From the IMG/VR virus record IMGVR_UViG_2547132278_000023: a stretch of DNA of 29,051 bases; one strand, 5' to 3'. A model generated the notes under the pieces. That model saw only the letters and a program-made list of their open reading frames with translations, made no database searches and was not told the origin of the DNA. The position numbers and the translations under genes are program-made. Below are positions 1 to 17,811 of this stretch, piece by piece (the stretch's first letter is position 1; every line of letters begins with the position of its first letter). The stretch is from a virus (lineage: Duplodnaviria > Heunggongvirae > Uroviricota > Caudoviricetes).

Positions 1-1284
1 TTACAGACTTCTGGAAGGTTGCACAGCTCTTACAACACGCGGTTGATCTTCCGCAGCGTCTTCCAGCGCACTTAAATCACGGTCTTTCACTTCTGGCATT
101 TTCAGCGCAGAGATTAAACCAATCACTGAATATGCCATGATCATAATGGCGATCGGATACCAGGATTCCGTCATGGTGCAGAAAATACCCGCCAGGATAG
201 GACCAAAACCGGAAGCGATAAGACCACCAATTTCTTTAGAAATGGCCATCCGGGTAAAGCGGTTTTTACAGCCGAACATTTCTGCCATGGTAATGTTTTC
301 CAGAGCAAATAATCCCAGCACCGCACAGTTATGAATCACAATCAGTGCAACCATAATGGTGCTCGGGGCATAGCTTTTATCTACAATGATAGAAAGCATT
401 GGCCATGCCAGCACAATCGCGGAGGTATTCATAATAATATACGGGATCCGGCGACCAATTTTATCGGATAACCAACCAAGGAACGGAATGGTCATAAAGC
501 CGAGAATCGAACTAATCATCAATGCATCTGTTGGAATTGCTTTGTTAAACAATAACGTCTGCACTAAATAGCCTGCAAGGAAAGTCTGAATTAACCCGGA
601 GTTACCCGCCTGACCAAAACGCAGCCCTGTTGCCAGCCAGAAGGATTTGCTCTGGAACATGCTACCAGCAGGTGCAGGTTTTGCTGTGGGTTGGTTGCTG
701 TCATTAACCTTCTCAAAGACCGGGCTTTCTTTCAGATTCATACGTAACCAGATAGCAAAGACCATCACGACAACGCTCGCCAGGAACGGTATACGCCATC
801 CCCACGCCAGCAGTTCCTCTTTACTGAGAATGAAGAACATAAAGGCCCAGATTGCCGTTGCGCTCAAGGTTCCGCAGTTAGTTCCCATAGCTACAAATGA
901 GGAGATAATTCCGCGCTTACCTTTTGGTGCATATTCCGCCAGCATCGTACCGGCACCGGAAATTTCCGCACCTGCACCCAACCCCTGAATAATACGCAGC
1001 GTCACCAGCAAGATGGGGGCAAAAACACCAATCTGTGCATAGGTCGGTAACACACCAATTAAGGTGGTACAGATCCCCATCATGGTGATGGTAATAAAGA
1101 GCACTTTTTTACGCCCTATTCTGTCGCCCATTTTGCCGAAAATAAATGCTCCGACAATACGCGCCACATAACCTGCACCGTAGGTTCCCATTGCCAAAAT
1201 TAACGCCATTGCCGTTGATGATTCAGGAAAAAATATTTCATGAAACACTAACGCTGCGCCGAGCGAATATAACTGGAAATCCAT
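1..1284 (-). CDS. ydfJ: MFS (metabolite:H+ symporter family) transporter YdfJ, missing about 30 N-terminal residues including part of TM1; truncated by prophage integration
   Basis: 427-aa ORF with multiple hydrophobic helices and an MFS loop motif (GKMGDRIGRKK). Stop codon at 1-3. The N-terminus begins inside what should be TM1 when compared with ProP/KgtP-type transporters. Confidence 0.8.
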   Translation of the reverse strand: MDFQLYSLGAALVFHEIFFPESSTAMALILAMGTYGAGYVARIVGAFIFGKMGDRIGRKKVLFITITMMGICTTLIGVLPTYAQIGVFAPILLVTLRIIQGLGAGAEISGAGTMLAEYAPKGKRGIISSFVAMGTNCGTLSATAIWAFMFFILSKEELLAWGWRIPFLASVVVMVFAIWLRMNLKESPVFEKVNDSNQPTAKPAPAGSMFQSKSFWLATGLRFGQAGNSGLIQTFLAGYLVQTLLFNKAIPTDALMISSILGFMTIPFLGWLSDKIGRRIPYIIMNTSAIVLAWPMLSIIVDKSYAPSTIMVALIVIHNCAVLGLFALENITMAEMFGCKNRFTRMAISKEIGGLIASGFGPILAGIFCTMTESWYPIAIMIMAYSVIGLISALKMPEVKDRDLSALEDAAEDQPRVVRAVQPSRSL

Positions 1285-1503
1285 AATTCATAGATATTTT
1301 TTACCATCCTATGGATTTTTGGGCGTTTTCTAAGTTTTTTCAGATGGTTGTATTTTTTCTAAAAACTCCTGATCTCGATTTTGCTGTTTGTCTGAGACCT
1401 TTTTATGTCCCATATATGCCCCAAGGTGCCCCATGTAAATCCAATTCAACTCAAAGCATCCCTGTTCAATATTTTTACAAGGGGCTTGCATATCAGTGTT
1501 TTT
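1285..1503. other. Prophage/host junction (att) region between truncated ydfJ and the last phage gene
   Basis: AT-rich 219-bp non-coding gap between the ydfJ ORF start and the tail-fiber chaperone stop. Exact att core not determinable without the other prophage end. Confidence 0.4.
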
Positions 1504-2070
1504 TTATTGCGTAACGTCAAACGCTCGGATTGAGCGTAAATCATCAAGATTATTCAGCTCTTCCTTCATCTCCCGCTGACGACGATAAATCTCGTCATTG
1601 CGATCGGCCTGTGCCCGTGCCATTACTGCCGCAAGTTCTTCCAGTTCCTGCATCGTCAGGAGGATTGGCGTATTCTCTCCATCTCCCCAAACAATTGTTT
1701 CTCTGCCAGCTCCTGATTTCGCCGCCATTACCACTGGTAAGAGGCGGGACAGCGAAACCGGACCAGCATTCCATTTGTGACCTTTCCATTCCAGCATGAA
1801 CGACATGGACTCCTGTTCCTGACGCCATACTTCGATCTCACACACTTTAGCCTCTTTTTCTGCGGCAATAAGTTCAGGCGTAACGGTAAACCGGGCTATT
1901 CCGCCCCACTTCCCGCTTTGCAGTTCCTGCCAGACCTGTTTACCCATTTCCGCAACATCATTCTCAACAGCGGTATAAGGTAGATGTACCTCCTGCCCCT
2001 CCAAAAGCACTTCACAATATACAGCACCATCCTCCAGAAACATGGCATTTCTTATATTTTTTATCTGCAT
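1504..2070 (-). CDS. Putative tail fiber assembly/chaperone protein (not lambda Tfa type)
   Basis: 188-aa ORF starting 7 nt downstream of the stf stop on the same strand, the position of tfa in lambdoid phages. Sequence does not resemble lambda Tfa as I recall it; the DUF4376-like assignment is tentative. Confidence 0.5.
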   Translation of the reverse strand: MQIKNIRNAMFLEDGAVYCEVLLEGQEVHLPYTAVENDVAEMGKQVWQELQSGKWGGIARFTVTPELIAAEKEAKVCEIEVWRQEQESMSFMLEWKGHKWNAGPVSLSRLLPVVMAAKSGAGRETIVWGDGENTPILLTMQELEELAAVMARAQADRNDEIYRRQREMKEELNNLDDLRSIRAFDVTQ

Positions 2071-2076
2071 ACTCTG

Positions 2077-4035
2077 TCACCCGACCCGCACAAATAATCC
2101 TATATACGCTTCCTTTCCGTTGGTGGTATAAAGACCATCTCCCCCCAGAGACTGATACACTCCGGGAAATGCCGATGTATTCGTTCTGCCAATGACAAAC
2201 GTTGCCTCCCCTTTCATTGTGCCTGCTCCTGTCACGCCTCCCACTACTATTTCCACCGGCGCAAGTGCTTTTCCCGGGCATGGTTGTCCACGACTCAGGC
2301 GCATTAAAACTCCACCTTCCGCTACTCCCAAAAAAGCTGCCATAACCACACTGCCGATATCCGGTTTCGGCGAACTGATACTTCTTAAAAATTCATCCTT
2401 TGATAATTTGCTCTGAGCCTCATCCATTACCACTTTGACCGCTTTTGGGGTTGCCGCCAGTGACTCGGAAGTGCTGTTTGTCGCACTACTGAGTTGTACT
2501 ATCCCTTTCTGTGCTGTCGTTGCATTCTGTGCGGTGTATTTCCCGTTAGCCAGGTCATACGCGGCCTTAACTGCTTTTGGCGTTGCCGCCAGTGACTCGG
2601 AAGTACTGTTTGTCGCACTGCTGAGTTGTACTATCCCCTTTTTCGTCGTGCTCGCATCCTCAAGCGCCACGGCGTATGCAATATCCTCTGCCCGTTTTGC
2701 TGCTGTCTCGGCGCGCGTTGCTGCGGATTCTGCCGTACTCTTGCTCTGTGCTGCCGCCGTCGCACTACCAGCTGCCTCGGTCGCTTTCGTGGATGCCGTC
2801 GTGGCACTTCCCTTCGCTGCTGACGCCTGTTTAGTCGCCTCATCTTTTGAAGCAGACGCAGATGATGCCGATGACGCCGCCGAACTGGCGGACGATGCGG
2901 CAGCCGTTTTTGAGGATTCTGCGCTGGTTTCCGACGCTTTCGCGTTCGTTTCGGATGTCTTCGCTGCGGAAGCAGACCTCGCTGCTGCGCTGGCCTGTTC
3001 AGCGGCTTCGCCAGCCTTCGTTGTGGCTGTTGAAGCAGACGATGCGGCACTTTCTGCCGATTTTCCGGCGGCGGTGGCACTGGCTGAGGCCTGCCCGGCA
3101 CTTGTTGACGCGGCACTGGCAGACGACGCAGCCGCTGTTTTTGAGCCTGCCGCAGCTGAGGCGCTCTGTCCCGCTGCCGTCTCAGAAGACTTAGCGTTCG
3201 TCTCGGACGTTTTTGCCGCCTTCGCGGAATTTCCTGCCGCCGTTGCCGAGGAAGCGGCACTACTGGCGCTCGAGGATGCGTTCGTTTCTGATGATTTCGC
3301 TGCCTCTTTTGAGGCCGCCGCATCCCGGGCTGAGGTGGCAGCTTCTGAGGCTTTCGTAGTCGCGGTGGATGCAGAAGTGGCTGCTGATTGTTGTGACGCT
3401 GCGGCATTCGTTTCTGACGTTTTCGCCGCACCGGCACTGGTGGCCGCCGCGCTTTTTGAGGACTCTGCAGCGGCAGCACTTTTTGATGCCTCAGAGGCTT
3501 TTGCTGATGCCGTTCCCGCGCTGGAAAAAGCCTCCTGAGCCGACGTCGCGGCCTGTCCGGCTGACGTGCTGGCGGCACGAGCTGAGCCTGCAGCATCAGT
3601 CGCATGGGTTGCCGCCTCACGGGCTGATGTGCTGGCATCGCTGGCTGACTTCTTCGCGGCTGCCGTGTTCTGTGCCACCGCGGACGCGTTACGCGCCACC
3701 TCTTCCACCATCAGTTCAAAACGGCGCAGTGCCTCAGGACGGGCATCATCCTCCGTCATGGCACCGAGAAAATCATTCAGCGTACCGGGTCGGGAATCTT
3801 CATACACGGTGATGGTCCCGGCATGTGACGGCGGGAATCCCTCCACCAACAGAATAACGCTGTACTGCCCGTACTCAACGTCCATGCTGTAACGCCCGGC
3901 TTCATCCGGATTTTCTGAGGCCAGCGTGTTCACCACCACCGTGGTGCTGTTACGTTTTGCTTTCAGCTGGATTGTGCAGTTCTGTACCGGTTTTCCTGTG
4001 CCGTCTTTCAGTACACCTGAAATCTTTACTGCCAT
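2077..4035 (-). CDS. stf: Side tail fiber protein Stf: lambda-like N-terminal and Ala/Ser/Thr-rich shaft, divergent C-terminal tip
   Basis: N-terminus MAVKISGVLKDGTGKPVQNCTIQLKA... and the A/S/T-rich repeats match lambda Stf as recalled. The conserved fiber motif KGIVQLSSATNSTSESLAATPKAVK occurs twice. Track ORF starts 2 codons upstream (MNMAVK), so start is 4035 or 4041. Confidence 0.85.
   Translation of the reverse strand: MAVKISGVLKDGTGKPVQNCTIQLKAKRNSTTVVVNTLASENPDEAGRYSMDVEYGQYSVILLVEGFPPSHAGTITVYEDSRPGTLNDFLGAMTEDDARPEALRRFELMVEEVARNASAVAQNTAAAKKSASDASTSAREAATHATDAAGSARAASTSAGQAATSAQEAFSSAGTASAKASEASKSAAAAESSKSAAATSAGAAKTSETNAAASQQSAATSASTATTKASEAATSARDAAASKEAAKSSETNASSSASSAASSATAAGNSAKAAKTSETNAKSSETAAGQSASAAAGSKTAAASSASAASTSAGQASASATAAGKSAESAASSASTATTKAGEAAEQASAAARSASAAKTSETNAKASETSAESSKTAAASSASSAASSASSASASKDEATKQASAAKGSATTASTKATEAAGSATAAAQSKSTAESAATRAETAAKRAEDIAYAVALEDASTTKKGIVQLSSATNSTSESLAATPKAVKAAYDLANGKYTAQNATTAQKGIVQLSSATNSTSESLAATPKAVKVVMDEAQSKLSKDEFLRSISSPKPDIGSVVMAAFLGVAEGGVLMRLSRGQPCPGKALAPVEIVVGGVTGAGTMKGEATFVIGRTNTSAFPGVYQSLGGDGLYTTNGKEAYIGLFVRVG
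2430..2645. repeat. Two near-identical direct repeats of about 75 bp, separated by about 60 bp, inside stf
   Basis: The repeat encodes the duplicated KGIVQLSSATNSTSESLAATPKAVK motif and shows on the antisense frame as the repeated peptide TAFGVAASDSEVLFVALLSCTIPF. Coordinates approximate. Confidence 0.5.
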
Positions 4036-4099
4036 ATTCACCCCACAAAAAAGCCCTCCTGAACCGGCGGGCTGTCATAACACTGTGTTACCTGGCTAA

Positions 4100-4699
4100 T
4101 CAGAATTTATAACCGACACCCACAATGAAACCGTCAGTGCGCCAGTCACCACTGCCGGAGCCTTCATAAGCAATATCAATGGCCACGGATTCGGTCGGGT
4201 TAAACTGCACGCCAGCCCCCCACGCCAGAGACGTGTTGCTGTGGCGACCGTCATCACTTCCGGTCAGCACATCATGCGTTTTCCCCGTATTGTCGGTCAC
4301 CTGCAGATAATCCCCGGAGAAAGTCGACACACGGCTGTAAGCCACACCCGCCATCGCATACGCGCTGAACCATTCATTCACGCGCACAGACGGTCCCGCC
4401 ATCACGCTGAACCAGCGGTTACGCACGGAATCCTCATGCCAGCGGGTATCGCTGTAATGCGTTTTTTGCTCATCTTCAGCGTTGGCATAACTGAATGACG
4501 TAATCAGCCCCAGCGTGTCCGTAAACTCATAACGGTATTTCACGTTAATCCCGTTCAGATTATCGCTGCCGGGAGCGTTCGTACGGGCATGAAGATACCC
4601 TGCGCTCAGTGTGGCCTGCTGCTCAGACGCCCATGCAGGCGCACCGGATACGGCCAGACAGATGGCTGCGGACAAAATGGCTGCATAAACTTTACGCAT
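4100..4699 (-). CDS. lom: Outer membrane protein Lom (Ail/Lom family beta-barrel)
   Basis: 199 aa with signal peptide MRKVYAAILSAAICLAVSGAPAWA and C-terminus ...AYEGSGSGDWRTDGFIVGVGYKF identical in character to lambda Lom. Sits directly after J as in lambda. Confidence 0.9.
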   Translation of the reverse strand: MRKVYAAILSAAICLAVSGAPAWASEQQATLSAGYLHARTNAPGSDNLNGINVKYRYEFTDTLGLITSFSYANAEDEQKTHYSDTRWHEDSVRNRWFSVMAGPSVRVNEWFSAYAMAGVAYSRVSTFSGDYLQVTDNTGKTHDVLTGSDDGRHSNTSLAWGAGVQFNPTESVAIDIAYEGSGSGDWRTDGFIVGVGYKF

Positions 4700-4720
4700 A
4701 ATTACCTCTCGCTTTTCTGC

Positions 4721-4748
4721 AATAAAAAAGGCGCCATTTCTGGCGCCC
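4721..4748 (-). terminator. Rho-independent terminator-like hairpin downstream of the original J stop (tJ-like)
   Basis: Palindrome ggcgcc-atttct-ggcgcc followed on the minus strand by a run of T (aaaaaa on plus), between the original J stop and the lom RBS. Confidence 0.45.
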
Positions 4749-4780
4749 GTATTGGGGTTATAAAATTCAGCTGATACTGA

Positions 4781-4788
4781 TGCCTGCG
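4781..4788. repeat. 8-bp target site duplication (TGCCTGCG), left copy
   Basis: Identical octamer immediately flanks both ends of the IS66-family element (second copy at 7488-7495). Confidence 0.6.
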
Positions 4789-4818
4789 GTAAGCGACTCG
4801 TCAGAACCGTATTGATAT

Positions 4819-6390
4819 TTACTGAGAGCTCAGATCAACTTTCCAGGGCAACAGATCGCGTACCCGGTTTGCCGGCCAGTCCTGGATATGTTCAATGACG
4901 TAACGCAGCCACTTTTCTGGCTCCACATTGTTCAGACGGCATGTGCCGATCAGCGAGTACAACACCGCCGCATGTTCACCACCGCTGTCGGAACCCGCGA
5001 ACATCCAGTTTTTCCGGCCTACGGCCACTCCCCGTAAGGCGTTCTCTGCGATGTTGTTGTCGATTTCCACCCAGCCATTACTGCAGTACACGTTCAGTGC
5101 ATCCCACTGTTTCAGCAGGTATGCGAACGCTTTTGCCGTATCTGAGTGACGCGACAGTGTTTTCATCTGTTGCTGTATCCAGTCATACAGTGACTGCATC
5201 AGTGGCGCGGCTCTGGCTTTTCTTGCCGCCAGACGCTGTTCTGCTGAACAGCCCCGGACCTCTGCCTCGATGGCATACAGTTCACCGATACGCTGCAGGG
5301 CTTCCGTGGTGATGTAGGTGGGCGCTCTTGCATGCACATCGTGGATTTTTCTCCGGGCATGAGCCATACACGCGGCTTCCGTTATTCTGCCGGATTCGTA
5401 TAACGCCCGGTAACCACCGTAAGCATCGGCCTGAAGCACACCGCTGTAACCGGCCAGGTGATTTTGTGGATGGATACCTTTCCGGTCCGGACTGTACGCG
5501 AACCAGACCGCCGGGGGCATCTGTGAACCGGCGTTACGGTCATCACGGACGTAGACCCACAGCCGGGCTGTCCGGGTTTTACCGCTGCCCGGCTCCTGGA
5601 CCGGGACGGGGATATCATCAGCATGGACTTTACCGGGCATCAGCACATACTGGCGCAGGACGTCATACAGCGGCTCCAGCAGTTCAGCAACAGCACCTGT
5701 CCAGCGCCCCAGTGTGGCACGGCTCAGCTCCACTCCCTGACGACGGTATATTTCTGACTGGCGGTATAACGGCAGATGGTCTGCATATTTCCCGGTGACA
5801 ACATGGGCCAGAAGCCCCGCTCCGGCATAACTGCGTGCAATGGGTTTTGAAGGTACTGGTGCCTGCACGATATGGTCGCACCGGCAACAGGCCTGTTTCG
5901 GACGTTGTGTTTCGATAACCTTAAAGGCGCTGCTGATAAGCTCCAGTTGCTCTGACACATCACATCCCAGAGAACTGAGTTCACCACCACAGGCAGGACA
6001 GCATTCCTCTTCCGGCCGGATAACCCGGGTTTCACGGGGAAGTGAGGCCGGTAACGGTTTACGGGCTGAAGACTGGCGCAGGGCGGATGGCAGTACCGGG
6101 TCATATTGCTCACCCAGCGTTTCCGCCATTTCTTCCTGAAGTGCGCTGATTCGCTCCTGTGCTTCCTGTATCTGCCGTTCGGTTTTTGCACGAAGTTTTT
6201 CTGAGCTTTTACCGAACTGCATACGTTGCAGTTTCGCAACCAGCGCCTTCAGCCGGTTGATTTCGGAAGCATAAGCCGCCACCCGCTGTGAGAGCAGGCG
6301 GTTGTATTCAGCCATCTGGCGGATGGTGTCCTGTTGCGTCTGCAACAGTGCCCGCAGGCGGGCGTTCTCATGAGCAAGTGAGGTGTCCAT
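4819..6390 (-). CDS. tnpC: IS66-family transposase TnpC
   Basis: 523 aa with a leucine-zipper-like N-terminus, CxxC...CxxC zinc-finger region and DDE core typical of IS66 transposases. Confidence 0.9.
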
Positions 6391-6409
6391 ATCCTCACTT
6401 TACAACGGG

Positions 6410-6757
6410 TTATATGCGGATTCCAGCGCGTTCCGTTCGTTTCGGGTGCTTCCAGTTGATACCTTCAAGAAGCATGGATAACTGAGCCGGAGTAAGGTGC
6501 ACCTTGCCGTCACGGGTGACTGGCCAGACGAAGCGGCCCCGCTCCAGGCGTTTGGTGAAGAGGCACAGTCCGTCACTGTCAGCCCACAACACTTTTATCT
6601 GGTCACCCCGGCGTCCGCGGAAGATGAACAGGTGTCCGGAGAACGGGTCATCCTTCAGGACGTTCTGAACTTTTGATGCCAGGCCGTTAAAGCCATTTCG
6701 CATATCGGTGATACCTGCAACCAGCCAGATACGCGAACCTGCAGGGAGAGATATCAT
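6410..6757 (-). CDS. tnpB: IS66-family accessory protein TnpB (orf2)
   Basis: 115-aa ORF between tnpA and tnpC, typical size, sequence and position for IS66 orf2. Confidence 0.85.
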   Translation of the reverse strand: MISLPAGSRIWLVAGITDMRNGFNGLASKVQNVLKDDPFSGHLFIFRGRRGDQIKVLWADSDGLCLFTKRLERGRFVWPVTRDGKVHLTPAQLSMLLEGINWKHPKRTERAGIRI

Positions 6758-7434
6758 CAGTGGCTGCTCCCTTTTATTTCGCGGATAAGTGTCTGTAATA
6801 ACGCCGGCGTCAGTTTACCTTTAAGCCTGAGAGTTCCGGCCGGCAGAACCAGCTCACAACACAGACTGTCGGGCGGTGTATTTATCTGCTCTGGTTCCTG
6901 TGCGGGGGCCGGGATTTTATTATCCGGCTCCGGCGTTAACGTCACGGGAAGCAGTGCCGGCATATTTTTTCCGGAAGGCAGCAGGCCACCTTTCCGGTAT
7001 TGATGGCGCCAGTTGAAGAGCAGGTTATCGTTGATTCCGTTTTCCCGGGCGATCTGCGCCACACAGGCTCCGGGCTGCAGTGACTGCTCCACTAAGGCGA
7101 TTTTAAACTCATAAGGGAAGTTGGGCCGCCGGGGACGTTTTTTTACCACGGGGGCTTCGGATATAACGGTGCTTTCAGGACGTACGACTGGTACCGTGGA
7201 AAATTGTCCGTAAAGGCAGGCATCAAGTTCCTGCTCCGACATGCCTGCGGGCAAAGGCCACGAAAGGCCAGCTCTCCGAAAGCGCACGAACATACTACAA
7301 ACAGTTGATTTTGGTACACCCAGGCGACGCCCGGCCACAACCCGGGGTAAATGTTCTTCAAAGTGAAGACGTAAAGCTTCAGTGATCCAGGTCCGGTGTT
7401 TCATACGATAGTGTCCATTAAAAATGATGGACAT
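6757..7434 (-). CDS. tnpA: IS66-family accessory protein TnpA (orf1); true start probably internal to this ORF
   Basis: Contains the HTH region ...VAQIARENGINDNLLFNWRHQYRKG characteristic of IS66 orf1. Stop overlaps the tnpB start by 1 nt. The 225-aa track ORF is longer than typical orf1. Confidence 0.7.
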   Translation of the reverse strand: MSIIFNGHYRMKHRTWITEALRLHFEEHLPRVVAGRRLGVPKSTVCSMFVRFRRAGLSWPLPAGMSEQELDACLYGQFSTVPVVRPESTVISEAPVVKKRPRRPNFPYEFKIALVEQSLQPGACVAQIARENGINDNLLFNWRHQYRKGGLLPSGKNMPALLPVTLTPEPDNKIPAPAQEPEQINTPPDSLCCELVLPAGTLRLKGKLTPALLQTLIREIKGSSH

Positions 7435-7470
7435 TATTTTTGTAGAGCCGGAGGAAACAGACCAGACGGT

Positions 7471-10400
7471 TTAAATGAGCCGGTTACTGCCTGCGGTGGC
7501 TTTCTTCATCACCACAACCAGCAAATCGCTGATACTTGCTGTGGGATACCAGTCATTTACCAACCATGCTGACACCGAAAACTCCAGTGTCATGTGACCG
7601 TGACCGGCAGGCATATCAATAACACCACTGTAAATCAGCGTATTATCCAGCGCGGTACGGTTATAAATTTCAGCACCGTTTTTCCGTACTATCAGACGGC
7701 ATGAGGAGTAAATATCAGTATGCTCTTTCTCATGTTTAGCGCCGCTGAATGCCACCGCCGGAATAACAATCTGCCGGTCAAACGGCTGATCGTCATAAAC
7801 CCTGACGGTAATGGTTCCTGATGGCCACCGCTCCGGTGCACGGGAGTCCCGGGGGAAAGCTTTGCCCACTGTTTTAACGAGATCGCCTTCAATCTGGTTC
7901 GCGGACAGTTTTCCCAGAACCCGACAGTTCTCGTTAATCGTGACGTTGTTGAGCGTCCCGGAGTTCGCATTCACGTTACCGCTGATATCGGCATTTTTCG
8001 CCGTCAGCCGCCCGTCCGGTGTCAGGGAAAATGCCGGAGGATTACCGCCGCTGGTAATGGTCGGAGCCGTCAGGCGTTTCAGGAACACGTCGTTCATGAA
8101 TATCTGATCGCCCTGACCAACAAACATTGGTCTTGTGTTGCCATTAGACGGATCAATAAACGCGATACGGTTAGCGGCAACCAGGAACTGGCTCAGCTTG
8201 CCTTCTTCCGTGTCCTCCATGCTGAGGCCAATACCCGCGACATAATGTTTGCCGTCTTTGGTCTGCTCAATTTTGACAGCCCACATGGCATTCCACTTAT
8301 CGTTGGCGTCCTTCCACTCTTTCGAAAACTCCTCCAGTCTGCTGGCGTTATCCTCCGTCAGCTCGACTTTTTCCAGCAGCTCCTTGCCGAGATGGGATTC
8401 GGTTATCTTGCCTTTGAAAAAATCCAGGTAACCTTCCGCATCATCGCTCGCCCGACCGACGGCCTCCACGAATGCCGATTTGCCAACGGTGTTCACACTG
8501 CGGATATAAAAGTAATAATCATGGCCCGGTTTGATATTGATACTGGCGGCTATCCAGTACAGCCCCGTGCCAAGGTAGCGGGCTGTGGTTTCAACCTGCC
8601 TGATATCGGTAATCCGCGTTTCCGAGAACCAGAACTCAAACTGCACCGTCGGGTCATATACAGCCAGTTTCGGGACCGCCGTTATCTGAAAATAGCCCGG
8701 TGTCAGCTCAATCCGCGACGGCGCTGCCGGTGCGGCAATCCGGAACGATACCGACGCCGGATCGCCCTGCTGCCCCCACGCATTTACTGCCCGGACTGTC
8801 AGCCTGTAGTTCCCCAGCGCCAGTTGTGTGAAGCGGTAAGTGGTTTCCGTCGTCCGGGCCGTGCTGACCAGCCGCTCACTGCCGTCATCCGCTGCCACGG
8901 TCAGGCGAAGCATAAAGCTCACCCCCTTCACCACCTTCGGCGTGTCCCAGCGCGCCAGCACCTGATATTCCCCGCTGTCTGCGGTGACTTCGGCAGTCAG
9001 GTGCTGCACCGCGGGCGGCGTGACACCATTCACCGTGCCGCTCTGGTCGCCGTCAAAGTGCGCCCCGTTATCCACGATGGCTTCTTTTTCCGGTACATGC
9101 TGCACGGCGGTGATGGCATACGTGCCGTCGTCGTTCTCACGGATACTCACGCAGCGGAACAGGCGCTGGCGCAGCGTCGGCAGCTTCAGCCCCCATACGC
9201 TGTATTCAGCAACGCCGTCAGGAACACGGCTCACTTTCACCTTCACGCCGTCGGTGACGGACTGAACCTCCACGCTGACCGGATTACCACTTCCGTCAAC
9301 CAGGCTTATCAGCGTGGTACCGGAGGATGGCAGCGTGATTTCACGGTCGAGCGTCAGCGTCCGGGTCTGGCTGTTCACCGCCAGCACGCGACCACCGGTG
9401 CTGATACCGGCATAGTCATCATCGCAGATTTCAATGACATCGCCCGGTACATGGCGAAGCCCTTCAGCACCCACGCTGAAATCCACGGTCTGCGTCTCCA
9501 GCAGTTCCGTTTTAATCAGCCACAGCCCGGCGCGGTGTGCCTGCCCCCGGCTGGTACAGCCAAAGGCATCCATCTTCGTGACGTTACGACCGTAACGGGC
9601 AATGGCCTGCGTATCTTCAACAAGCTCTGTCGCCGTCTCCCAGCCGTTATCCGGGTCAATCCAGTTCACCTCAACGGCATTATGGCGGTCTTTCAGGGCG
9701 CTGAAACTGTAGCGGAACGGCGCGCCATCATCCGGCATCACCACATTACTGCGGTTATAGGCCCACACCTTATCCGACGGTCGGTCCTGCACGAACGTCA
9801 GCGTCTGCCCGTTCCATACCGGCATACAGCGCATCGCCGAGCAGAAATCACTGAGCACATCCCACGCTTTGCGCTGTGTGGTCAGGTACGCATTACAGGT
9901 GATGCGCGGCTCCGTGCCGCCAAAGCCGTCCGGCACTGACTGGTCGCAGTACTGGCCGATGACATACAGCGCCCATTTGTCCACATCCGCCGCACCAAGA
10001 CGTTTCCCCATGCCGTAGCGTGGATGGGTCAGCATATCCCACAGACACCAGGCCATGTTATTGCTGTATGCTGGCTTAAACGTTCCGTCCCAGATACCGC
10101 TGTATTGCCGAGTCTGCGGGTTATAGTTCGACGGCACCTGCAGAATACGCCCGCGCAGATGATAATTACGGCTCACCTGCTGGCTGCCGAACTGCTCCGA
10201 ATCCACCTGTACGCCGACCAGTGCCGTGTTCGGGTAGCACTGTTTCACATCGATGATTTCGGTGTATGACGACCAGAGCGTTTTGTTCTGCAGCTGGTCT
10301 GTGGTGCTGTCCGGCGTCATTCTGCGCATCCGGATATTAAACGGGCGCGGCGGCAGGTTATCCACCACCACCGAGGCCAGATACTGCGAGGTGGTTTTGC

Positions 10401-10869
10401 CCTTAATGGTGATGTCTTTTTCCGTCACCCAGCCACCATTACGCTGTATCTGAACCAGCAGGCGAACTTCCGACGGATTCCGGTCCCCCTTTGAGGTGGT
10501 TTCCACCAGTGCCTGCACACCGAAGGTAAAGCGCAGACGGTCGATGTTTGCCGACGTGATGGTCCGGGTAATCGGCGTGTCGTATTTCACTTCCGTACCC
10601 AGTACCGTCTCGGAACCTGATGATTCAAATCCCTCCGGCGGTGTCTGTTCCTGCTCACCTGCCCGGAACACCACCGTGACACCAGAGATGTTAGTATTCC
10701 CCTCACTGTCCAGCACCGGTGTACTGTTCAGCAGCACGCTTTTTAATCCATCCACCGGACCTTCAACCGGCCCTTCGCTGATGGCATCGATCACACTCAG
10801 CAACTGCGTGGACTTCAGGTTGTCCTTTGCTTCGCGCGGGGTATGCCCCTTACTGCTGCCTTTACCCAT
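7471..10869 (-). CDS. J: Tail tip host-specificity protein J (central tail fiber); last 5 codons and stop come from the IS66 end
   Basis: 1132 aa, same length as lambda J, co-linear with the lambda order I-J-lom. The ORF runs 17 nt into the IS, giving ...[11 protein letters not shown] instead of the reconstructed ...KKATAGISIS*. Confidence 0.9.
7488..7495. repeat. 8-bp target site duplication (TGCCTGCG), right copy
   Basis: Same octamer as 4781-4788, abutting the right IS66 terminus. Confidence 0.6.
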
Positions 10870-10890
10870 TCCTCACGCTCCATAAACGAC

Positions 10891-10912
10891 AAAACCGCCC
10901 GGAGGCGGTTTC
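10891..10912 (-). promoter_or_regulatory. Stem-loop in the I-J intergenic region
   Basis: accgcc-cgga-ggcggt hairpin flanked by A/T runs, followed on the minus strand by the RBS gaggaa and the J ATG. Confidence 0.3.
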
Positions 10913-10929
10913 ACATAAAACATTTTGCA

Positions 10930-11571
10930 TCAGCGACCAATCACCACAACCTGACCACCATCCCCTTCGTCTGCCGTGCTGATCTCCTGAGAAACCACAC
11001 GTGACCCCACGCGCATTTCACCGTACAGAACAGGCAGAACATTGCCCTGGGCAACCATGTTATCCAGTGAGGAGAAATAGGTGTTCTGTTTGCCGTTATC
11101 CGTTGTCTGTGTACGGGGAGTTCTGGCTTTCGGTGCCAGCATCTGCGCCACACCACCGAGCACCATACTGGCACCGAGAGAAAACAGCAGATTACTCGCC
11201 ATAATTCCTACCCCCGGCATCCATATAGCAACCGCCATAACAGCCGCCCCCAGCACAGCCTGAAACACACCGCCACTTTTGGCTCCTGCCAGACGCGGCA
11301 CGATATGGATCACGGCACCATTTTCCAGCGGCTCATTAAGACGGGCAGACAATTCGGTTTCACCTGCATCACGCCCGGCAATGCGTACCTGATACCAGCC
11401 GTCGCTCAGCTTCTGACGAAACGCCGGGATCTGCATGGCCAGCGCCCGGATGGCTTCGGCCCCCGTTTTCACACGAAGGTCGATGCGGCGGCCAAATCGT
11501 TGCAAATCCCCGTAAAGGCAGATGCGTGCCATTCCCGGTGACGCCAGAGGGAGTGTGTGCGTCGCTGCCAT
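10930..11571 (-). CDS. I: Tail tip assembly protein I
   Basis: 213 aa; MAATHTLPLASPGMARICLYGDLQRFGRRIDLRVKTG... and C-terminus ...EISTADEGDGGQVVVIGR match lambda I as recalled. Overlaps K by 103 nt, as in lambda. Confidence 0.9.
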   Translation of the reverse strand: MAATHTLPLASPGMARICLYGDLQRFGRRIDLRVKTGAEAIRALAMQIPAFRQKLSDGWYQVRIAGRDAGETELSARLNEPLENGAVIHIVPRLAGAKSGGVFQAVLGAAVMAVAIWMPGVGIMASNLLFSLGASMVLGGVAQMLAPKARTPRTQTTDNGKQNTYFSSLDNMVAQGNVLPVLYGEMRVGSRVVSQEISTADEGDGGQVVVIGR

Positions 11572-12212
11572 TTGTCGGTATACCTCTCTCGTTTACTCAG
11601 TTGTTCAGGAATATGGTGCAGCAGCTCACCGTCGCCGCAGTAAATGGCGGCATGATTCGGCACCGATGAACCAAAGCAGCACAGCAGCACATCGCCAGGC
11701 TGCGCCTCTGTCAGTGGGACACGGTAAAAACCAGTCGCCTCCATATTGTCAAGATAGAGATTCTGACCGTGACGCCACCAGTCATCCCCGCGATAAAAAT
11801 CCGGCATCTCAATCCCCGCCAGATGATAAGCATCCCGGAACAGTGTGTAACAGTCCGTCACACCGTGCTCAAAGCGCCGCCCGGTGAGATGCGGCACACA
11901 GCGGAACTTATGAATCGTCCCCCGGCAGACCAGCCACCACGGCAAATCACTCTGCACCTGCAGCCGCCGGTCGGCCTCACTCAGCCAGGGCAGACCACCG
12001 GGGTGGCTGTGGACCAGCGCCACAATCTCACCCTGCATTTCTGCCTGCAGCCAGTCTTCCGGCGACATACGGAAATACGCCTCCGGCTCACCGGAGATAT
12101 TCGCGCAGGGGAAATATCTTTCCCCCTCCGGCGTTCTCACCACGAAGCCGCACGACTCCGCTGGCGCACATCGCCGGGCGTGCGCCAGAATCGCTGATTC
12201 TGTCTGTGTCAT
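11469..12212 (-). CDS. K: Tail tip assembly protein K (JAB/MPN-like HSHPGG motif in the N-terminal part, NlpC/P60-like C-terminal part)
   Basis: 247-aa ORF starting 5 nt after the L stop. The classical 199-aa lambda K would start at internal Met49 (MSPEDW...). The JAMM-type motif HSHPGGLPWLSEAD sits at residues 68-81, just downstream of that Met. Confidence 0.85.
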   Translation of the reverse strand: MTQTESAILAHARRCAPAESCGFVVRTPEGERYFPCANISGEPEAYFRMSPEDWLQAEMQGEIVALVHSHPGGLPWLSEADRRLQVQSDLPWWLVCRGTIHKFRCVPHLTGRRFEHGVTDCYTLFRDAYHLAGIEMPDFYRGDDWWRHGQNLYLDNMEATGFYRVPLTEAQPGDVLLCCFGSSVPNHAAIYCGDGELLHHIPEQLSKRERYTDKWQRRTHSLWRHREWHASAFTGICNDLAAASTFV

Positions 12213-12217
12213 GGGAT

Positions 12218-12916
12218 TTACTGCGAAAGTTTGTTAATGGAAAGGAAGCCGCCAAAGTTGCCGACGTTATTGCGGAACTTACAACCGCTCAGGCATTTGC
12301 TGCATTTATCCTTCGTGATATCGGACGTTGGCTGGTCATATTCATCCGCGACAGCCGGACCGCTATAACCGCACTCGTCACCGCGATAGGTCCAGGTGCA
12401 GGTGTTGGCCAGCATGATACGTCCCGGAAAAACAGCGCCATCCGTTTCCGTCGGCGTGGACAGTACAAAGGAGGCACTCACCGCGCTCAGTTCGCTGCAC
12501 TGCTCAATGCGCCAGCGGCTGATCACCTCCTGCTCCGGATCGGCATAACTGTTTCCGTTGACGAAGTTCACCGCATCCAGAAAACGGGCGTAAACCTTAC
12601 GCCGGACCACCGTTCCGCCGACCAGACTCTGCATATCTTCCGCCATCCCGGTGACCATACCGTACAGGTTAGAAACCGTCAGCGTGGGGCGCGTACTGGT
12701 GCCTTTGCCATTCAGTTCAAAACCGCTCCCCTGAATGGGATACGGCTGATACTGTCGCCCCTGCCAGGTGACCGGCTCACCTTTTTCGTTCTGCTCATTA
12801 CAGAAAAAATAACGTTCTCCACCGACCTCTGTCAGGTCGATTTCCCAGAGCACCACGCTGGCCGACTGCTCCGCACGGGTGCATTCATTCAGTGTTTCCT
12901 GCCGGATATCCTGCAT
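12218..12916 (-). CDS. L: Tail tip protein L
   Basis: 232 aa, same length and sequence character as lambda L, with Cys-rich C-terminus. Confidence 0.9.
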   Translation of the reverse strand: MQDIRQETLNECTRAEQSASVVLWEIDLTEVGGERYFFCNEQNEKGEPVTWQGRQYQPYPIQGSGFELNGKGTSTRPTLTVSNLYGMVTGMAEDMQSLVGGTVVRRKVYARFLDAVNFVNGNSYADPEQEVISRWRIEQCSELSAVSASFVLSTPTETDGAVFPGRIMLANTCTWTYRGDECGYSGPAVADEYDQPTSDITKDKCSKCLSGCKFRNNVGNFGGFLSINKLSQ

Positions 12917-13245
12917 CAGTTCACCACCTGTTCAAACTCTGCGCTGAACTCAACACGCAGCATACTGACCCGCGACGACCATTTTGCGCAGGTCACCTTT
13001 ATCTGCCGCCACTCATAAGGCGGCGTCCACAGAAAGGATTTCCAGCCCCCGTACTCTTCCAGAAACGACTCCAGTACCGTGGCCTCCTCACGGGGGACAG
13101 AAAGCGTCACGCTGTACGTTTTCAGGTTGGCATTCAGCCCGGCAGGCGCTCGCTGAGAATAGCCATCACCAAAGCGCACCTTTCTTACAGAAGGGACCGA
13201 AGCCACATCCATACCGGGTTTCACTTTCCAGCGGAAGGTCTTCAT
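12916..13245 (-). CDS. M: Tail tip protein M
   Basis: 109 aa, lambda M length, in lambda order between H and L. Start overlaps the H stop. Confidence 0.9.
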   Translation of the reverse strand: MKTFRWKVKPGMDVASVPSVRKVRFGDGYSQRAPAGLNANLKTYSVTLSVPREEATVLESFLEEYGGWKSFLWTPPYEWRQIKVTCAKWSSRVSMLRVEFSAEFEQVVN

Positions 13246-15821
13246 CGTCCACCTCCGGAGAACAGGCCACCATCACGCATCTGTGTCTGAATTTCATCAC
13301 GGGCACCCTTGCGGGCCATGTCATACACCGCCTTCAGAGCAGCCGGACCTATCTGCCCGTTCGTGCCGTCGTTGTTAATCACCACATGGTTATTCTGCTC
13401 AAACGTCCCGGACGCCTGCGACCGGCTGTCTGCCATGCCGCCCGGTGTACCGACATAACCGCCGGTGGCATAGCCGCGCATCAGCCGGTAAAGATTCCCC
13501 ACGCCAATCCGGCTGGTTGCCTCCTTCGTGAAGACAAACTCACCACGGTGAACAATCCCCGCTGGCTCATATTTGCCGCCGGTTCCCGTAAATCCTCCGG
13601 TTGCAAAATGGAATTTCGCCGCAGCGGCCTGAATGGCTGTACCGCCTGACGCGGATGCGCCGCCACCAACAGCTCCGCCAATGGCGCTGCCGATACTCCC
13701 GACAATCCCCACCATTGCCTGCTTAAGCAGAATTTCTGTCATCATGGACAGCACGGAACGGGTGAAGCTGCGCCAGTTCTGCTCACTGCCGGTCAGCATC
13801 GCCGCCATATTCTGTGCAATACCATCAAAGGTCTGCGTGGCTGCACTTTTTACCTGCGACATACTGTCCGTGGCGCTCTCTTCCCACTCACTCCAGCCGG
13901 ACTTCAGGCCTGCCATCCAGTTCCCGCGAAGCTGGTCTTCAGCCGCCCAGGTCTTTTTCTGCTCTGACATGACGTTATTCAGCGCCAGCGGATTATCGCC
14001 ATACTGTTCCTTCAGGCGCTGTTCCGTGGCTTCCCGTTCTGCCTGCCGGTCAGTCAGCCCCCGGCTTTTCGCATCAATGGCGGCCCGTTTTGCCCGTTGC
14101 TGCTGTGCGAATTTATCCGCCTGCTGCGCCAGCGCGTTCAGGCGCTCCTGATACGTAACCTTGTCGCCAAGTGCAGCCAGCTGGCGTTTGTACTCCAGCG
14201 TCTCATCTTTATGCGCCAGCAGGGATTTCTCCTGTGCAGACAGCTGGCGACGTTGCGCCGCCTCCTCCAGTACCGCGAACTGACTCTCCGCCTTCCACAA
14301 ATCCCGGCGCTGCTGGCTGATTTTCTCATTTGCTCCGGCATGCTTCTCCAGCGTCCGGAGTTCTGCCTGAAGCGTCAGCAGGGCAGCATGAGCACTGTCT
14401 TCCTGACGATCGCCCGCAGACACCTTCACGCCGGACTGTTTCGGCTTTTTCAGCGTCGCTTCATAATCCTTTTTCGCCGCCGCCATCAGCGTGTTGTAAT
14501 CCGCCTGCAGGATTTTCCCGTCTTTCAGTGCCTTGTTCAGTTCTTCCTGACGGGCGGTATATTTCTCCAGCGGCGTCTGCAGCCGTTCGTAAGCCTTCTG
14601 CGCCTCTTCGGTATATTTCAGCCGTGATGCCTCAGACTCGGCCCAGTCCTTTGCTGCCATCTCTCTGGCCTTTTCAAGATCGGCCTGCAACGTGGCGGCT
14701 GAAAGTCCAAGTTGCGCATTCGCTCTGTCCTCCCATGCTCCCCGGAGATTGGCACGAAATGCTGAGGTTTTACCGCGCCGGTGGCTCCGGCTCTGATACC
14801 ACTGCCATTTTTTGTCCGCCTCATCAAAAGCCTTTTCTGCTTTCTCCAGCATTCCCTGGGCAGTGTCCGGGCGACCAATATCCAGCACCGAATCCCACAT
14901 GGATTTGAATGCCCGTGCTGTCCTGTCTGCCCAGGTCTCCAGCGTGCCCATGTTCTCTTTCAGGCGGCGGGTCTGGTCATCAAACCCTTTCGTTGCGGCC
15001 TCGTTCGCCGCCTGCAATGCCCCGGCTTCATCTCCGGAACGCTGCAACTGAGCAACATACGCAATCTGCTCCGCCGTCACGTTATGGAACTGACGTGCCA
15101 TCGCTGTCAGTCCCGACGTCGGGTCTGTGGTCAGCTTCCCGAAGGCTTCAGCGACCTTGTCCACCTCCACGCCGGATGCAGAGGAGAAACGCGCCACACT
15201 CTGGCTGATCGCCTCAAACTGCTCACCACCACGCACACCGGCATTCACCAGCGCCGTCAGTGACTCGCTGGTCTGGTTAAACGTCAGCCCTGCCGCCTGC
15301 CCGGCTCTGGACAGGACCAGCATACGATCTGCCGTCAGTCCCGCCTGATTGCCGGAAAGGACCAGCGTTTTGTTGAAATCGGACAGGGTTGAGTTGCCCT
15401 GATACCAGGCATACGCCAGCGCACCGGTCGCCACCGCCAGCGAGGTGGCCCCCACCATCGGCAGGGTGATCGCACCGGCAAGCCCCCTGAACATGGGGAT
15501 CATCCCGCCGAAGGAGTCCTTAACCTGACCCCCCTGTTGCAGCAGGATCAGCCACGGACTTTGCCCGCCTGCAAGCTGCGTGGCCACGTCGGTGAACTGT
15601 GCAGGCAGCATACGCATGGCGGCTTTATACTGTCCGACGGAAATCCCCGCTTTCTGTGCAGCCAGCGCCTGCCGGTTCATTGACTGTTCAACGACTGCCG
15701 CTGTTTTTTTCGCATCACTTTCCGTATCGGAAAAATGACGCCTGACTCTGGCCATCTGCTCGTCAAATCTGGCCGCATCCAGACTCAAATCAACGACCAG
15801 ATCGCCTACCGGTTCAGCCAT
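13242..15821 (-). CDS. H: Tail tape measure protein H
   Basis: 859 aa, long coiled-coil-rich protein with Gly-rich C-terminal region, in lambda position. Lambda H is 853 aa. Confidence 0.9.
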   Translation of the reverse strand: MAEPVGDLVVDLSLDAARFDEQMARVRRHFSDTESDAKKTAAVVEQSMNRQALAAQKAGISVGQYKAAMRMLPAQFTDVATQLAGGQSPWLILLQQGGQVKDSFGGMIPMFRGLAGAITLPMVGATSLAVATGALAYAWYQGNSTLSDFNKTLVLSGNQAGLTADRMLVLSRAGQAAGLTFNQTSESLTALVNAGVRGGEQFEAISQSVARFSSASGVEVDKVAEAFGKLTTDPTSGLTAMARQFHNVTAEQIAYVAQLQRSGDEAGALQAANEAATKGFDDQTRRLKENMGTLETWADRTARAFKSMWDSVLDIGRPDTAQGMLEKAEKAFDEADKKWQWYQSRSHRRGKTSAFRANLRGAWEDRANAQLGLSAATLQADLEKAREMAAKDWAESEASRLKYTEEAQKAYERLQTPLEKYTARQEELNKALKDGKILQADYNTLMAAAKKDYEATLKKPKQSGVKVSAGDRQEDSAHAALLTLQAELRTLEKHAGANEKISQQRRDLWKAESQFAVLEEAAQRRQLSAQEKSLLAHKDETLEYKRQLAALGDKVTYQERLNALAQQADKFAQQQRAKRAAIDAKSRGLTDRQAEREATEQRLKEQYGDNPLALNNVMSEQKKTWAAEDQLRGNWMAGLKSGWSEWEESATDSMSQVKSAATQTFDGIAQNMAAMLTGSEQNWRSFTRSVLSMMTEILLKQAMVGIVGSIGSAIGGAVGGGASASGGTAIQAAAAKFHFATGGFTGTGGKYEPAGIVHRGEFVFTKEATSRIGVGNLYRLMRGYATGGYVGTPGGMADSRSQASGTFEQNNHVVINNDGTNGQIGPAALKAVYDMARKGARDEIQTQMRDGGLFSGGGR

Positions 15822-16248
15822 ACCGGACTCCTCCTGCGATCCCTTCTGATACTGTCATCAGCATTACGTCATCCTCCGTCATGTCCGCCACATCCGGGGA
15901 AGCGGGGATAACTTCATTCCCGTCCGGGCCAAAGCGGACGCCTCCGGCAAGCCCTGCCGCTTTCTGCATCAGCACATCATCTTCAGGCTCTTCGTCAGCC
16001 TCGCGCCGGTTCAGCAGACTGAAATCCAGCGGATGCATATCCGGATCGCTGAAAAACAGGCTGAGTACGGTGTACGTCAGCCCGGAAAAGTGCATATCCA
16101 GCAGAACATCATGAAAATAATGGGTACTGTAAAAGCGGTGCCAGTCGGCATACTCCGTGGATGACATCCCGGCAAGCATGGCGCGCCAGTCGGGTCGCCC
16201 CATCTCACGCGCCAGTTTCAGGGCAAAACTCAGCTCACCGTCGAACAC
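15814..16248 (-). CDS. T: T segment of tail assembly chaperone GT, expressed only as a G-T fusion by -1 ribosomal frameshift
   Basis: 144-aa ORF in the -1 frame relative to G, overlapping the G 3' end. The track's first codon is GTG, immediately after the slippery heptamer. Confidence 0.8.
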   Translation of the reverse strand: MFDGELSFALKLAREMGRPDWRAMLAGMSSTEYADWHRFYSTHYFHDVLLDMHFSGLTYTVLSLFFSDPDMHPLDFSLLNRREADEEPEDDVLMQKAAGLAGGVRFGPDGNEVIPASPDVADMTEDDVMLMTVSEGIAGGVRYG

Positions 16249-16652
16249 TTTCCCGCAGAAACAGGCTCTGCTGGCCCGGCGTCATCTGCCTGTTCAGGTG
16301 CATCATTCACAACAAACTCAGACATACCGGACAGACGCATTACCACATTTTCAGCCTGAGCAATTGCCTCTGTGGGCCAGGTGGTAAGCACTTCCTGCTC
16401 AATTTGTTTAACGGCTTCATTCATGGACGGCATCTTTGTCTTCTGCGGATGGCTATGCCACAGGGACATCGCCACCAGAAAAGCACCGGTTCTGACGAGA
16501 TCTTCCACGCTCACCTGTCGATTGAGACTGGATCCCGCCTGTTCTGCCTGTCGTTTCAGCAGGGCGAGATGCTCAATTCGCTGCAGGGCTGACAGTTCAG
16601 AAAGCGTGACGCTCACACCGTTATATTCAAATGATTCGGTTTTCAGGAACAT
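16230..16652 (-). CDS. G: Tail assembly chaperone G
   Basis: 140 aa, MFLKTESFEYNGVSVTLSELSALQRIEHLALLKRQAEQ... ends ...PVSAGKCSTVS as lambda G. Confidence 0.9.
   Translation of the reverse strand: MFLKTESFEYNGVSVTLSELSALQRIEHLALLKRQAEQAGSSLNRQVSVEDLVRTGAFLVAMSLWHSHPQKTKMPSMNEAVKQIEQEVLTTWPTEAIAQAENVVMRLSGMSEFVVNDAPEQADDAGPAEPVSAGKCSTVS
16248..16254 (-). other. Programmed -1 frameshift slippery heptamer G GGA AAG (G to GT)
   Basis: Minus-strand sequence ...gcg gga aag tgt tcg... (G frame: AGKCS) shifts to ...ggg aaa gtg ttc gac ggt gag... (T frame: GKVFDGELSFALKL). Same heptamer and position as lambda G/GT. Confidence 0.7.
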
Positions 16653-16667
16653 CGCTGACTCTCCGGA

Positions 16668-17408
16668 TTAACTGTCGGTGACGGTGATTTCTGCAACCAC
16701 AGCAAGTTCACCATTACCGGATACAACCGGAATGTTGACCTTGCCTGCAGCAACACCTTTCACGGTGATGGTCATACCACTGACCGACACGGTGACTTTT
16801 GTTTTATCCGCAGACACCGCACGGAAGCTCTTGTCGGTTGCGCCTTCCGGCTGGAATGCCACGGTCAGCGTGGTGCTCTGCCCTTTCACCACCGAAGTGC
16901 TGGCAGGCGTCACGGTCATGCCGGTTGCCGCTGTTACCGTGCTGCGATCTTCTGCCATCGACGGACGTCCCACGTTGGTGACTTTCACCGTGCGGGTGAT
17001 CACTTCCTTCGCCGTCACCGCCTTACCGATACTGCTGACCCAGCCGCGGAACACATCGACCGTGCCGTTCGGGAAGCGGATTTTATAGGCACGGGTATCC
17101 CCTTCATTAAACCACGCCAGCAGCGCCTGCTGCCCCTGCTCTCCGGGCATCCACGCCAGCGTGAAGCTGGTATCTCCGGCAGATTTCTGCCCCTGCCCGG
17201 TCGCAGTCCAGTCCGCATCTTCATCATCGAGATAGCTGTCGTCATAGGACTCAGCGGTCAGTTCGCCGGGCGTCAGGTCTTTAACTTTAGCCAGACGCGA
17301 CCAGTCAACGTCTGAAAGCGGGTTCGCATAAGGGTCACCGTTCCCCTTATAAACCCACAGTGTGGTCCCGGCCCCTTTCACCGGCATTACTGGATTTGGT
17401 ACAGGCAT
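16668..17408 (-). CDS. V: Major tail tube protein V with C-terminal Ig-like domain
   Basis: Matches lambda V from [22 protein letters not shown]... The track ORF has a 10-codon upstream extension; start set at the conserved Met. Confidence 0.9.
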
Positions 17409-17415
17409 ATCGTCC

Positions 17416-17811
17416 TCACATTTCATAGGTAATGACATAAGTCAGATCGGCTGAACTCCACAGGCCCGCATCATCGTCGCGCCGGTAGTCATAGCCACTG
17501 GCCACCATACTGGTGATCAAATCTGACAGTGCCGGGACATCGCTCATCACCGGATAAATCCGGGACTCCATCCACGAATCCAGCTCTGAATCCGGCACCT
17601 GAGCAGGCAGGAAAACTTCAATATGCAGCTCCGCCTGCCAGGTATCACTGTCCAGCTCTTCGCCCGTGTATTCAGCGCCGGTGAGATAAACGGCAATTGC
17701 CGGAAAATCCGCCTCATCAAAAACAGCGGGGCGACCATCAAAAAGCGTCGCCCCGGTGTCATGCTTCTCCAGTGCATCCAGTACGGCTGCACGGAGTTCA
17801 GTATGTTTCAT
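17416..17811 (-). CDS. U: Tail terminator protein U
   Basis: Matches lambda U from [22 protein letters not shown]... to ...LTYVITYEM. The track ORF has a 20-codon upstream extension. Confidence 0.9.

Follow-up and report, generated by a model that had tools for sequence, protein, structure and literature searches.

The stretch of DNA analysed here, referred to throughout as the window, is the 29,051-nt virus record IMGVR_UViG_2547132278_000023 (Caudoviricetes). At its left end, an ATG-started open reading frame (ORF) of 427 amino acids occupies positions 1..1284 on the minus strand (N-terminal sequence MDFQLYSLGAALVF) and represents the transporter gene ydfJ. A gap of 219 bp (1285..1503) separates this ORF from the first phage ORF, which begins at 1504 and is followed by tail fibre, tail and head genes of lambda-like type (Table 1). 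A first-pass annotation, made from the sequence alone, had proposed that a prophage is integrated in ydfJ, that the site is that of the Qin prophage of Escherichia coli K-12, that the gene is left truncated at its 5′ end, and that the prophage ends about 220 bp from the ORF. Comparison with K-12, with genomes in which the site is empty, and with the enterotoxigenic E. coli (ETEC) strain ETEC-2265, which was used as a sister strain for the integrase end of the prophage, bore out the first three proposals and relocated the prophage boundary.

The truncated ydfJ gene and its junction with the prophage

An intact form of the gene is present in strain 600468, where ydfJ spans 1368 bp (455 amino acids) between ydfI and rspB, and its final 1284 nt are identical to the window sequence. 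The segment lost from the window comprises 28 residues, MTIEKHERSTKDLVKAAVSGWLGTALEF, close to the roughly 30 estimated initially. Orthologues retrieved in a scan of one genome per species (79–85% identity) all aligned from residue 1, and derive from Citrobacter, Enterobacter, Leclercia, Lelliottia, Klebsiella, Raoultella, Kosakonia, Phytobacter, Salmonella arizonae, other Escherichia species, and others. At 17 loci from at least 10 other genera, every N-terminus begins 28 residues before the window Met; a start at the same Met, which the first-pass annotation had named as fatal to its proposal, was thus not seen; the stretch AAVSGWLGTALEFMDFQLYSLGAALVFHEIFFPE, which spans the break point, is invariant among these orthologues. 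Starts at residue 29 were confined to the E. coli and E. ruysiae representatives and to a contig from a metagenome-assembled genome labelled ‘Caldithrix’, each with a Qin-type arm upstream. The latter contig (SMXE01000224.1, ‘Caldithrix sp.’) has a ydfJ fragment 100% identical to that of E. coli and preceded by the Qin arm, and is almost certainly E. coli contamination. In the E. ruysiae representative the ydfJ site is filled by an element with a K-12-Qin-type arm, and use of the site extends beyond E. coli sensu stricto.

Profile searches point to the same deficit. The 427-residue product scores 453.5 bits against TIGR00883 (metabolite/H+ symporter, NCBIfam; curated cut-off 443.45 bits), compared to 462.9 bits for the intact protein; its alignment to this 400-position profile starts at position 7, that of the intact protein at position 1. 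The corresponding entry points are 37 versus 12 for the ShiA model, and 40 versus 22 for the ProP model. Together with the orthologue comparison, these positions indicate that the shortened product lacks a complete N-terminus, including the start of the first transmembrane helix (TM1). The NCBI annotation pipeline PGAP likewise labels the 100% identical ETEC-2265 gene a pseudogene (‘incomplete; missing N-terminus’). For the N-terminus of the intact protein, the hydropathy profile is broad and does not fix the limits of TM1, and the missing portion of the helix was therefore judged from the profile entry positions and a conserved motif: what has been lost is the cytoplasmic N-terminal tail together with the beginning of TM1, as far as the conserved E-F-M-D-F motif. 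The ORF does begin inside the first transmembrane helix, as had been suggested.

The position of the junction is marked by an abrupt step in identity to K-12. Positions 1..1275 match at 1261/1275 (98.9%), positions 1276..1286 match exactly, positions 1287..1424 match the left end of Qin at 110/139 (79%), and identity beyond 1424 is at random level. The discontinuity between host and phage DNA that the first-pass annotation expected upstream of the ORF is therefore located at the ORF's own ATG, and not at about 1503. Comparing the window with both K-12 Qin junctions and with the integrase-side junction of ETEC-2265 defined an 11-bp attachment (att) core, GAAATCCATAA, identical at all four. On the minus strand this core reads TTATGGATTTC and encodes (F28)-M29-D30-F31; the 427-residue ORF exists because Met29 falls within it. 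The wider, imperfect att sequence is CTGGAAATCCATAATTCA at the window junction (18 bp, 1273..1290) and CTTGAAATCCATAAATTCA at the integrase-side junction of ETEC-2265 (19 bp), from which attB is inferred as CTGGAAATCCATAAATTCA (19 bp) and attP as CTTGAAATCCATAATTCA (18 bp). A published definition of the att of ydfJ prophages, with attB taken from an unoccupied strain, likewise gives 18 or 19 bp (PMC8112680, S7 Fig). In the lambda convention the window junction is attR (POB′), the integrase-distal end. Over positions 1201..1500 the GC content falls to 0.36–0.38, as would suit an AT-rich att arm, although this is not decisive alone.

An alternative is that the 427-residue ORF is native, full-length ydfJ, with the prophage lying in upstream intergenic DNA and ending near 1503. 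K-12 MG1655 does carry the same 1284-bp ORF (b1543), which RefSeq lists as an ordinary 427-residue coding sequence, and no phage ORF precedes 1504. However, an intact gene of 455 residues exists, orthologues in at least 10 other genera start 28 residues upstream with an invariant motif across the break, the fall in K-12 identity from 98.9% to 79% occurs exactly at the core, and positions 1287..1424 are homologous to Qin DNA, which rules out a junction at 1503/1504. The empty site provides a further argument. We rebuilt attB by joining window positions 876..1286 to the host flank of ETEC-2265 (819 bp), and of 5426 complete E. coli genomes, 2010 contain this sequence uninterrupted, many of them at 100% identity; in the empty-site genomes tested, the sequence runs continuously through the core. 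Taken together, the empty sites, intact gene, identity step and orthologue N-termini refute a native 427-residue ydfJ, to which we assign practically no chance of being correct. Among the same complete genomes, 3186 contain a homologue of the phage arm, close to the roughly 3400 that lack an unbroken copy of the rebuilt site, and 5366 match part or all of window 1..2100. Seven complete ETEC genomes match positions 1..2100 at 100% identity, and identity at the ydfJ junction extends, again at 100%, over 4790 bp in seven complete genomes.

The opposite end of the prophage was traced in K-12 and ETEC-2265. In MG1655, Qin is annotated at 1632277..1652745 and begins 9 bp inside the ydfJ ORF; it is flanked by the 1284-bp ydfJ at one end, and by ynfP (b4534), beside the intQ pseudogene and rspB, at the other. 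Translation of ynfP yields the missing N-terminus, MTIEKHERSTKDLVKAAVSGWLGTALEFMDF, followed by five phage-derived residues (KSHAC, then stop). The ETEC-2265 prophage at ydfJ is ~54 kb long and identical to the window over 1..4790. Its integrase end encodes an 83-residue DUF1233 excisionase and a 431-residue tyrosine integrase (Arm-DNA-bind_2 and Phage_integrase domains) that is 98% identical to the K-12 intQ remnant; these are followed by CTTGAAATCCATAAATTCA, the 5′ fragment of ydfJ (the ynfP sequence), and rspB. The heptamer TGCCCCA occurs only twice in the 29-kb window on either strand, as a tandem pair (1417 and 1427), and similar pairs with 10–11 bp spacing occur in the integrase-side arms of ETEC-2265 (L003 9845..9862) and K-12 (L002 26670..26687). 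Because such pairs are present in both arms, the integrase has an arm-binding domain, and the distances to the core are lambda-like, these pairs may be arm-type sites for the Arm-DNA-bind_2 integrase. The phage DNA between core and first phage ORF also contains a remnant of a DinI-like gene, and DinI-like annotations also occur in the related arms of O157 and O111 strains.

The consequences for the ydfJ fragment (ydfJ′) can be assessed from its new upstream sequence, which reads ...AGGATGGTAAAAAATATCTATGAATT-ATG in mRNA sense. Inspection found no Shine–Dalgarno sequence at normal spacing upstream of Met29, and a scan of 1150..2150 for sigma-70-like promoters returned 0 sites versus 1.7 expected by chance, which is weak evidence. 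With no ribosome-binding sequence and no nearby promoter of this kind, ydfJ′ is most likely a non-functional remnant. The prophage late genes lie on the same strand as ydfJ′–ydfI and read towards them, and ydfJ′ would probably be transcribed at most by read-through from the late operon. Differences in the truncated gene are mostly synonymous (14 nt and 1 amino acid relative to K-12; 114 nt and 8 amino acids relative to E. ruysiae), a pattern compatible with recent or repeated integration and giving no sign of decay.

Overall, these data are very probably best explained by a lambdoid prophage of the Qin (PPydfJ) integration family inserted in ydfJ at the 11-bp core; the shared core, the homologous arm and the shared Qin gene content each connect the element to this family. 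Insertion would have taken place at codons 28–31 by site-specific recombination through a tyrosine integrase, an enzyme seen only in the sister strain ETEC-2265, with crossover within the 11-bp identity common to attB and attP. From left to right, the window comprises the 3′ part of ydfJ (1..1275), the core (1276..1286), the P arm with its DinI-like remnant (1287..1503), and then the phage structural genes. Integration separates ydfJ′ and ydfI from the rspAB side and from the DNA natively upstream of them. Three considerations weigh on the other side: (i) the integrase, excisionase and ydfJ 5′ fragment lie outside the window, whose source draft contig ends in the insertion sequence (IS) IS100; (ii) the window is mosaic relative to ETEC-2265, and the far end in its own genome might not be the ynfP/rspB junction; and (iii) the mostly synonymous differences are also compatible with a ydfJ′ that has retained its function.

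Gene content and damage of the prophage

Beyond the junction, the window carries a collinear set of lambda-like genes, Nu1/A/W/B/C/D/E/FI/FII/Z/U/V/G/T/H/M/L/K/I/J. Pfam matches support the genes from C to J (Phage_cap_E, Minor_tail_Z, Phage_tail_U, TMP_2, Phage_tail_L, Lambda_tail_I, GpJ domains, and others), while the assignments of B, W, A and Nu1 rest on PGAP names from loci with 98–100% identity. Within this block, C is an S49 peptidase, B the portal protein and A a 641-residue large terminase. The window also carries a gene for a Rha regulator.

Table 1. Features of the window, with position, strand and supporting evidence
Feature	Position	Strand	Evidence
ydfJ′ 3′ fragment, MHS-family MFS transporter	1..1284	-	codons 29–455 plus stop; 427-residue ORF from internal Met29
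Host chromosomal DNA up to crossover core	1..1275		98.9% to K-12; contiguous with rspB-side flank in 2010 empty-site genomes
11-bp att core GAAATCCATAA	1276..1286		same 11-mer at both K-12 Qin junctions and at ETEC-2265 integrase-side junction
Phage-side att arm, conserved	1287..1424		79% to K-12 Qin left end; equivalent to lambda P arm
DinI-like gene remnant, phage DNA	1344..1433	+	PGAP on identical ETEC-2265 sequence: incomplete, missing C-terminus
Tandem TGCCCCA-N3-TGCCCCA, candidate arm-type integrase site	1417..1433	+	proposed; see text
DUF4376 protein, 188 residues, first intact phage gene, at tail fibre assembly gene position	1504..2070	-	Pfam PF14301 2.6e-13; PGAP
Side tail fibre gene, Ala/Ser-rich	2077..4041	-	Pfam phage_tail_N 6.9e-72, Phage_fiber_2
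lom (Ail/Lom outer membrane protein)	4100..4699	-	Pfam Ail_Lom 1e-123
ISCro1 (IS66 family), 8-bp target duplication TGCCTGCG	4789..7487	-	100% to ETEC-2265 ISCro1 copies; tnpA, tnpB, IS66 transposase called
Lambda-like block J, I, K, L, M, H, T, G, V, U, Z, FII, FI, E, D, C, B, W, A	7471..25649	-	Pfam and PGAP names
Mosaic switch interval	12660..13052		mismatch maps versus ETEC-2265 ydfJ-locus and att-lambda (bio) prophages
Segment common to K-12 Qin (nohA / small terminase, ynfO, ydfO)	25641..27299		97.1% to K-12 L002 9840..11497; Pfam DUF3950, DUF1398
Rz spanin fragment, N-terminally truncated by IS100	28430..28738	-	Pfam Phage_lysis, profile 26–125 of 126
IS100 (IS21 family) end	28799..29051	-	100% to ETEC-2265 IS100 copies; IstB C-terminus ORF; window ends inside

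The prophage is damaged at three places. ISCro1 has inserted at the 3′ end of J, where it replaces the last four residues (...ATAGISIS-stop becomes ...ATAGSNRLI-stop); IS100 interrupts Rz, leaving the embedded Rz1-like lipoprotein ORF (28471..28677) in place; and PGAP flags the identical ETEC-2265 copy of the side tail fibre gene as partial, missing its C-terminus. The early region of the prophage, like the integrase, falls outside the window. Within the protein-position collection, the IS-modified variant of J is on record for one contig only, with 2 samples listed. In ETEC-2265, the IS100 of the corresponding prophage lies 596 bp away and the ISCro1 copies likewise sit at different sites, in surrounding sequence that is 99.98% identical. 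The side tail fibre gene contains a long Ala/Ser/Thr-rich centre of low complexity, with GC content up to 0.67, which gives rise to long spurious ORFs in other frames (2435..3538 on the plus strand and 2631..3638 on the minus strand).

Mosaicism relative to ETEC-2265

The window resembles different ETEC-2265 prophages on either side of a short interval. Positions 1..12659 are ~100% identical to the prophage at the ydfJ locus, with 7 differences after the IS, while positions 13053..29051 differ from the ETEC-2265 prophage at att-lambda/bio at only 2 positions in 16 kb (99.98%). Mismatch maps place the last difference from the att-lambda prophage at 12659 and the start of the first run of differences from the ydfJ-locus prophage at 13053. 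Within complete E. coli genomes, the region around this switch (11400..14400) has no exact match, the best being 99.0%, and window 4052..29051 is not contained in any of the 5426 genomes, where the best match (97% coverage, 98.7% identity) lies at a different locus.

In ETEC-2265 the two prophages are in opposite orientation, ~0.92 Mb apart, such that homologous recombination between the inverted elements could have produced an inversion of ~0.9 Mb. The far end of the window would then be the att-lambda junction, with the integrase–ynfP end residing on the reciprocal hybrid. Such an event accords with the match of the left part to the ydfJ-locus prophage and of the right part to the att-lambda prophage, and inter-prophage inversions between ompW and ydfJ are documented (PMC8112680). 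However, the junction is absent from the complete genomes, and, from general knowledge of the K-12 map, the terminus region would be strongly displaced. In addition, ETEC-2265 could be the derived form, and the differing IS positions indicate that the two strains are not simple derivatives of each other. Inversion, gene conversion, ordinary lambdoid mosaicism and misassembly all give the same local picture at the switch, and we consider an inversion of this kind unlikely while still giving it some weight.

The last of these processes, misassembly, is possible to a limited degree. The source is a 142-kb, 2010-era draft contig (AELB01000021.1, GCA_000166555.2) that ends in the IS100 repeat just past the window, and an assembler may have crossed between prophage copies in the 393-bp switch interval, a stretch identical in both that holds no sites distinguishing the two prophage types; the resulting junction would, as found, be common to no complete genome. 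At such repeats, however, an assembler will usually end a contig instead of bridging the repeat, and the placement of the IS66 and IS100 elements is self-consistent, their target duplications being clean. We regard an artefact here as unlikely while giving it some weight, and the ydfJ junction, matched in seven complete genomes, would be unaffected by it.

It is also conceivable, although rather doubtful, that an exchange between the ydfJ-locus and att-lambda prophages, specific to this strain, is recorded in the window. If this exchange was reciprocal, ~0.9 Mb including the terminus region would be inverted, and ydfJ′ would be joined to a prophage body that has its integrase end at another locus. 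Both hybrids would then be locked in place, since their att ends would no longer match.

Relation to known prophages at ydfJ

The essentials of Qin-type integration at ydfJ are already published (PMC6379469, PMC8112680); the arrangement is common, and current understanding is unchanged by the present finding. Qin is reported to integrate site-specifically at the 5′ end of ydfJ, with loss of the promoter and of 28 codons; the Qin locus is occupied in 48% of 638 strains, and the ‘Qin-locus’ prophages of 189 strains measure 11–97 kb (Ramisetty & Sudhakari 2019, PMC6379469). Occupancy of ydfJ in many strains, including K-12, is also described in PMC8112680, and ETEC-2265 is listed among the strains analysed in the published ydfJ/Qin-locus prophage surveys. 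The present results matter mainly for annotation: the true prophage boundary is inside the start codon of the ORF, and the native protein has 455 residues, the 427-residue ‘YdfJ’ of K-12 and of roughly 60% of complete E. coli genomes being what integration has left of it. As ydfJ is a well-documented lambdoid hotspot, including for carriers of Stx toxin and effectors, correct att coordinates help to delimit prophages. At the unoccupied site of strain 600468 (L004 77..5296), rspA, rspB, ydfJ and ydfI are arranged head-to-tail on one strand, with a gap of 57 bp between rspB and ydfJ. Insertion would therefore split a probable operon regulated from the rspAB side, separating ydfJ–ydfI from that side of a probable sugar-acid utilisation cluster.

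The closest reference is Qin (Kim) of K-12 MG1655, which occupies the same ydfJ site with the same 11-bp core and the same 427-residue remnant ORF. The integrase-distal arms are homologous (79% over 138 bp), and the nohA–ynfO–ydfO segment, 97% identical in the window, accounts for all Qin genes found there. The same-locus prophage of ETEC-2265 shares more with Qin, namely ydfU (84%), hokD (98%), ydfA to ydfE (the dicF–dicB region, 92%) and int (98%). Qin itself is 20.5 kb long, has lost its morphogenesis genes except nohA′, stfQ and tfaQ, and carries pinQ, cold-shock genes and relBE. In contrast, the window element extends over more than 27 kb and retains the whole lambda-like A-to-J block, which is absent from Qin, in keeping with the original impression of a far more complete genome; its tail-fibre/DinI end differs beyond the first 138 bp, and it carries the ISCro1 and IS100 insertions. 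The suggestion that it is a less decayed relative of Qin is reasonable in light of the A-to-J block and the nohA–ynfO–ydfO segment, but because the element is IS-damaged and mosaic, an intact or single-origin Qin ancestor should not be assumed.

The PPydfJ prophages of Shiga toxin-producing and enteropathogenic E. coli (STEC/EPEC) are likewise lambda-like, located in ydfJ and bounded by 18/19-bp att sequences (Nakamura et al. 2021, PMC8112680). Those of STEC differ in carrying type III secretion system effector loci and in forming tandem clusters (PMC8112680), whereas no effector cargo was seen in the window. Compared to PPydfJ and Qin-locus prophages generally, the combined mosaic and IS pattern of the window occurs in no complete genome searched.

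With lambda, the element shares the broader layout of integration: Int and Xis at one prophage end, tail genes at the other, and a short core. The candidate arm sites lie ~130–150 bp from the core in the tail-side arm and ~60–77 bp from it in the integrase-side arm. These distances are comparable to those of lambda P1/P2 and P′1–P′3. The two systems differ in core sequence, in arm motif and in the nature of the target, which is coding sequence at ydfJ and intergenic gal–bio DNA for lambda.

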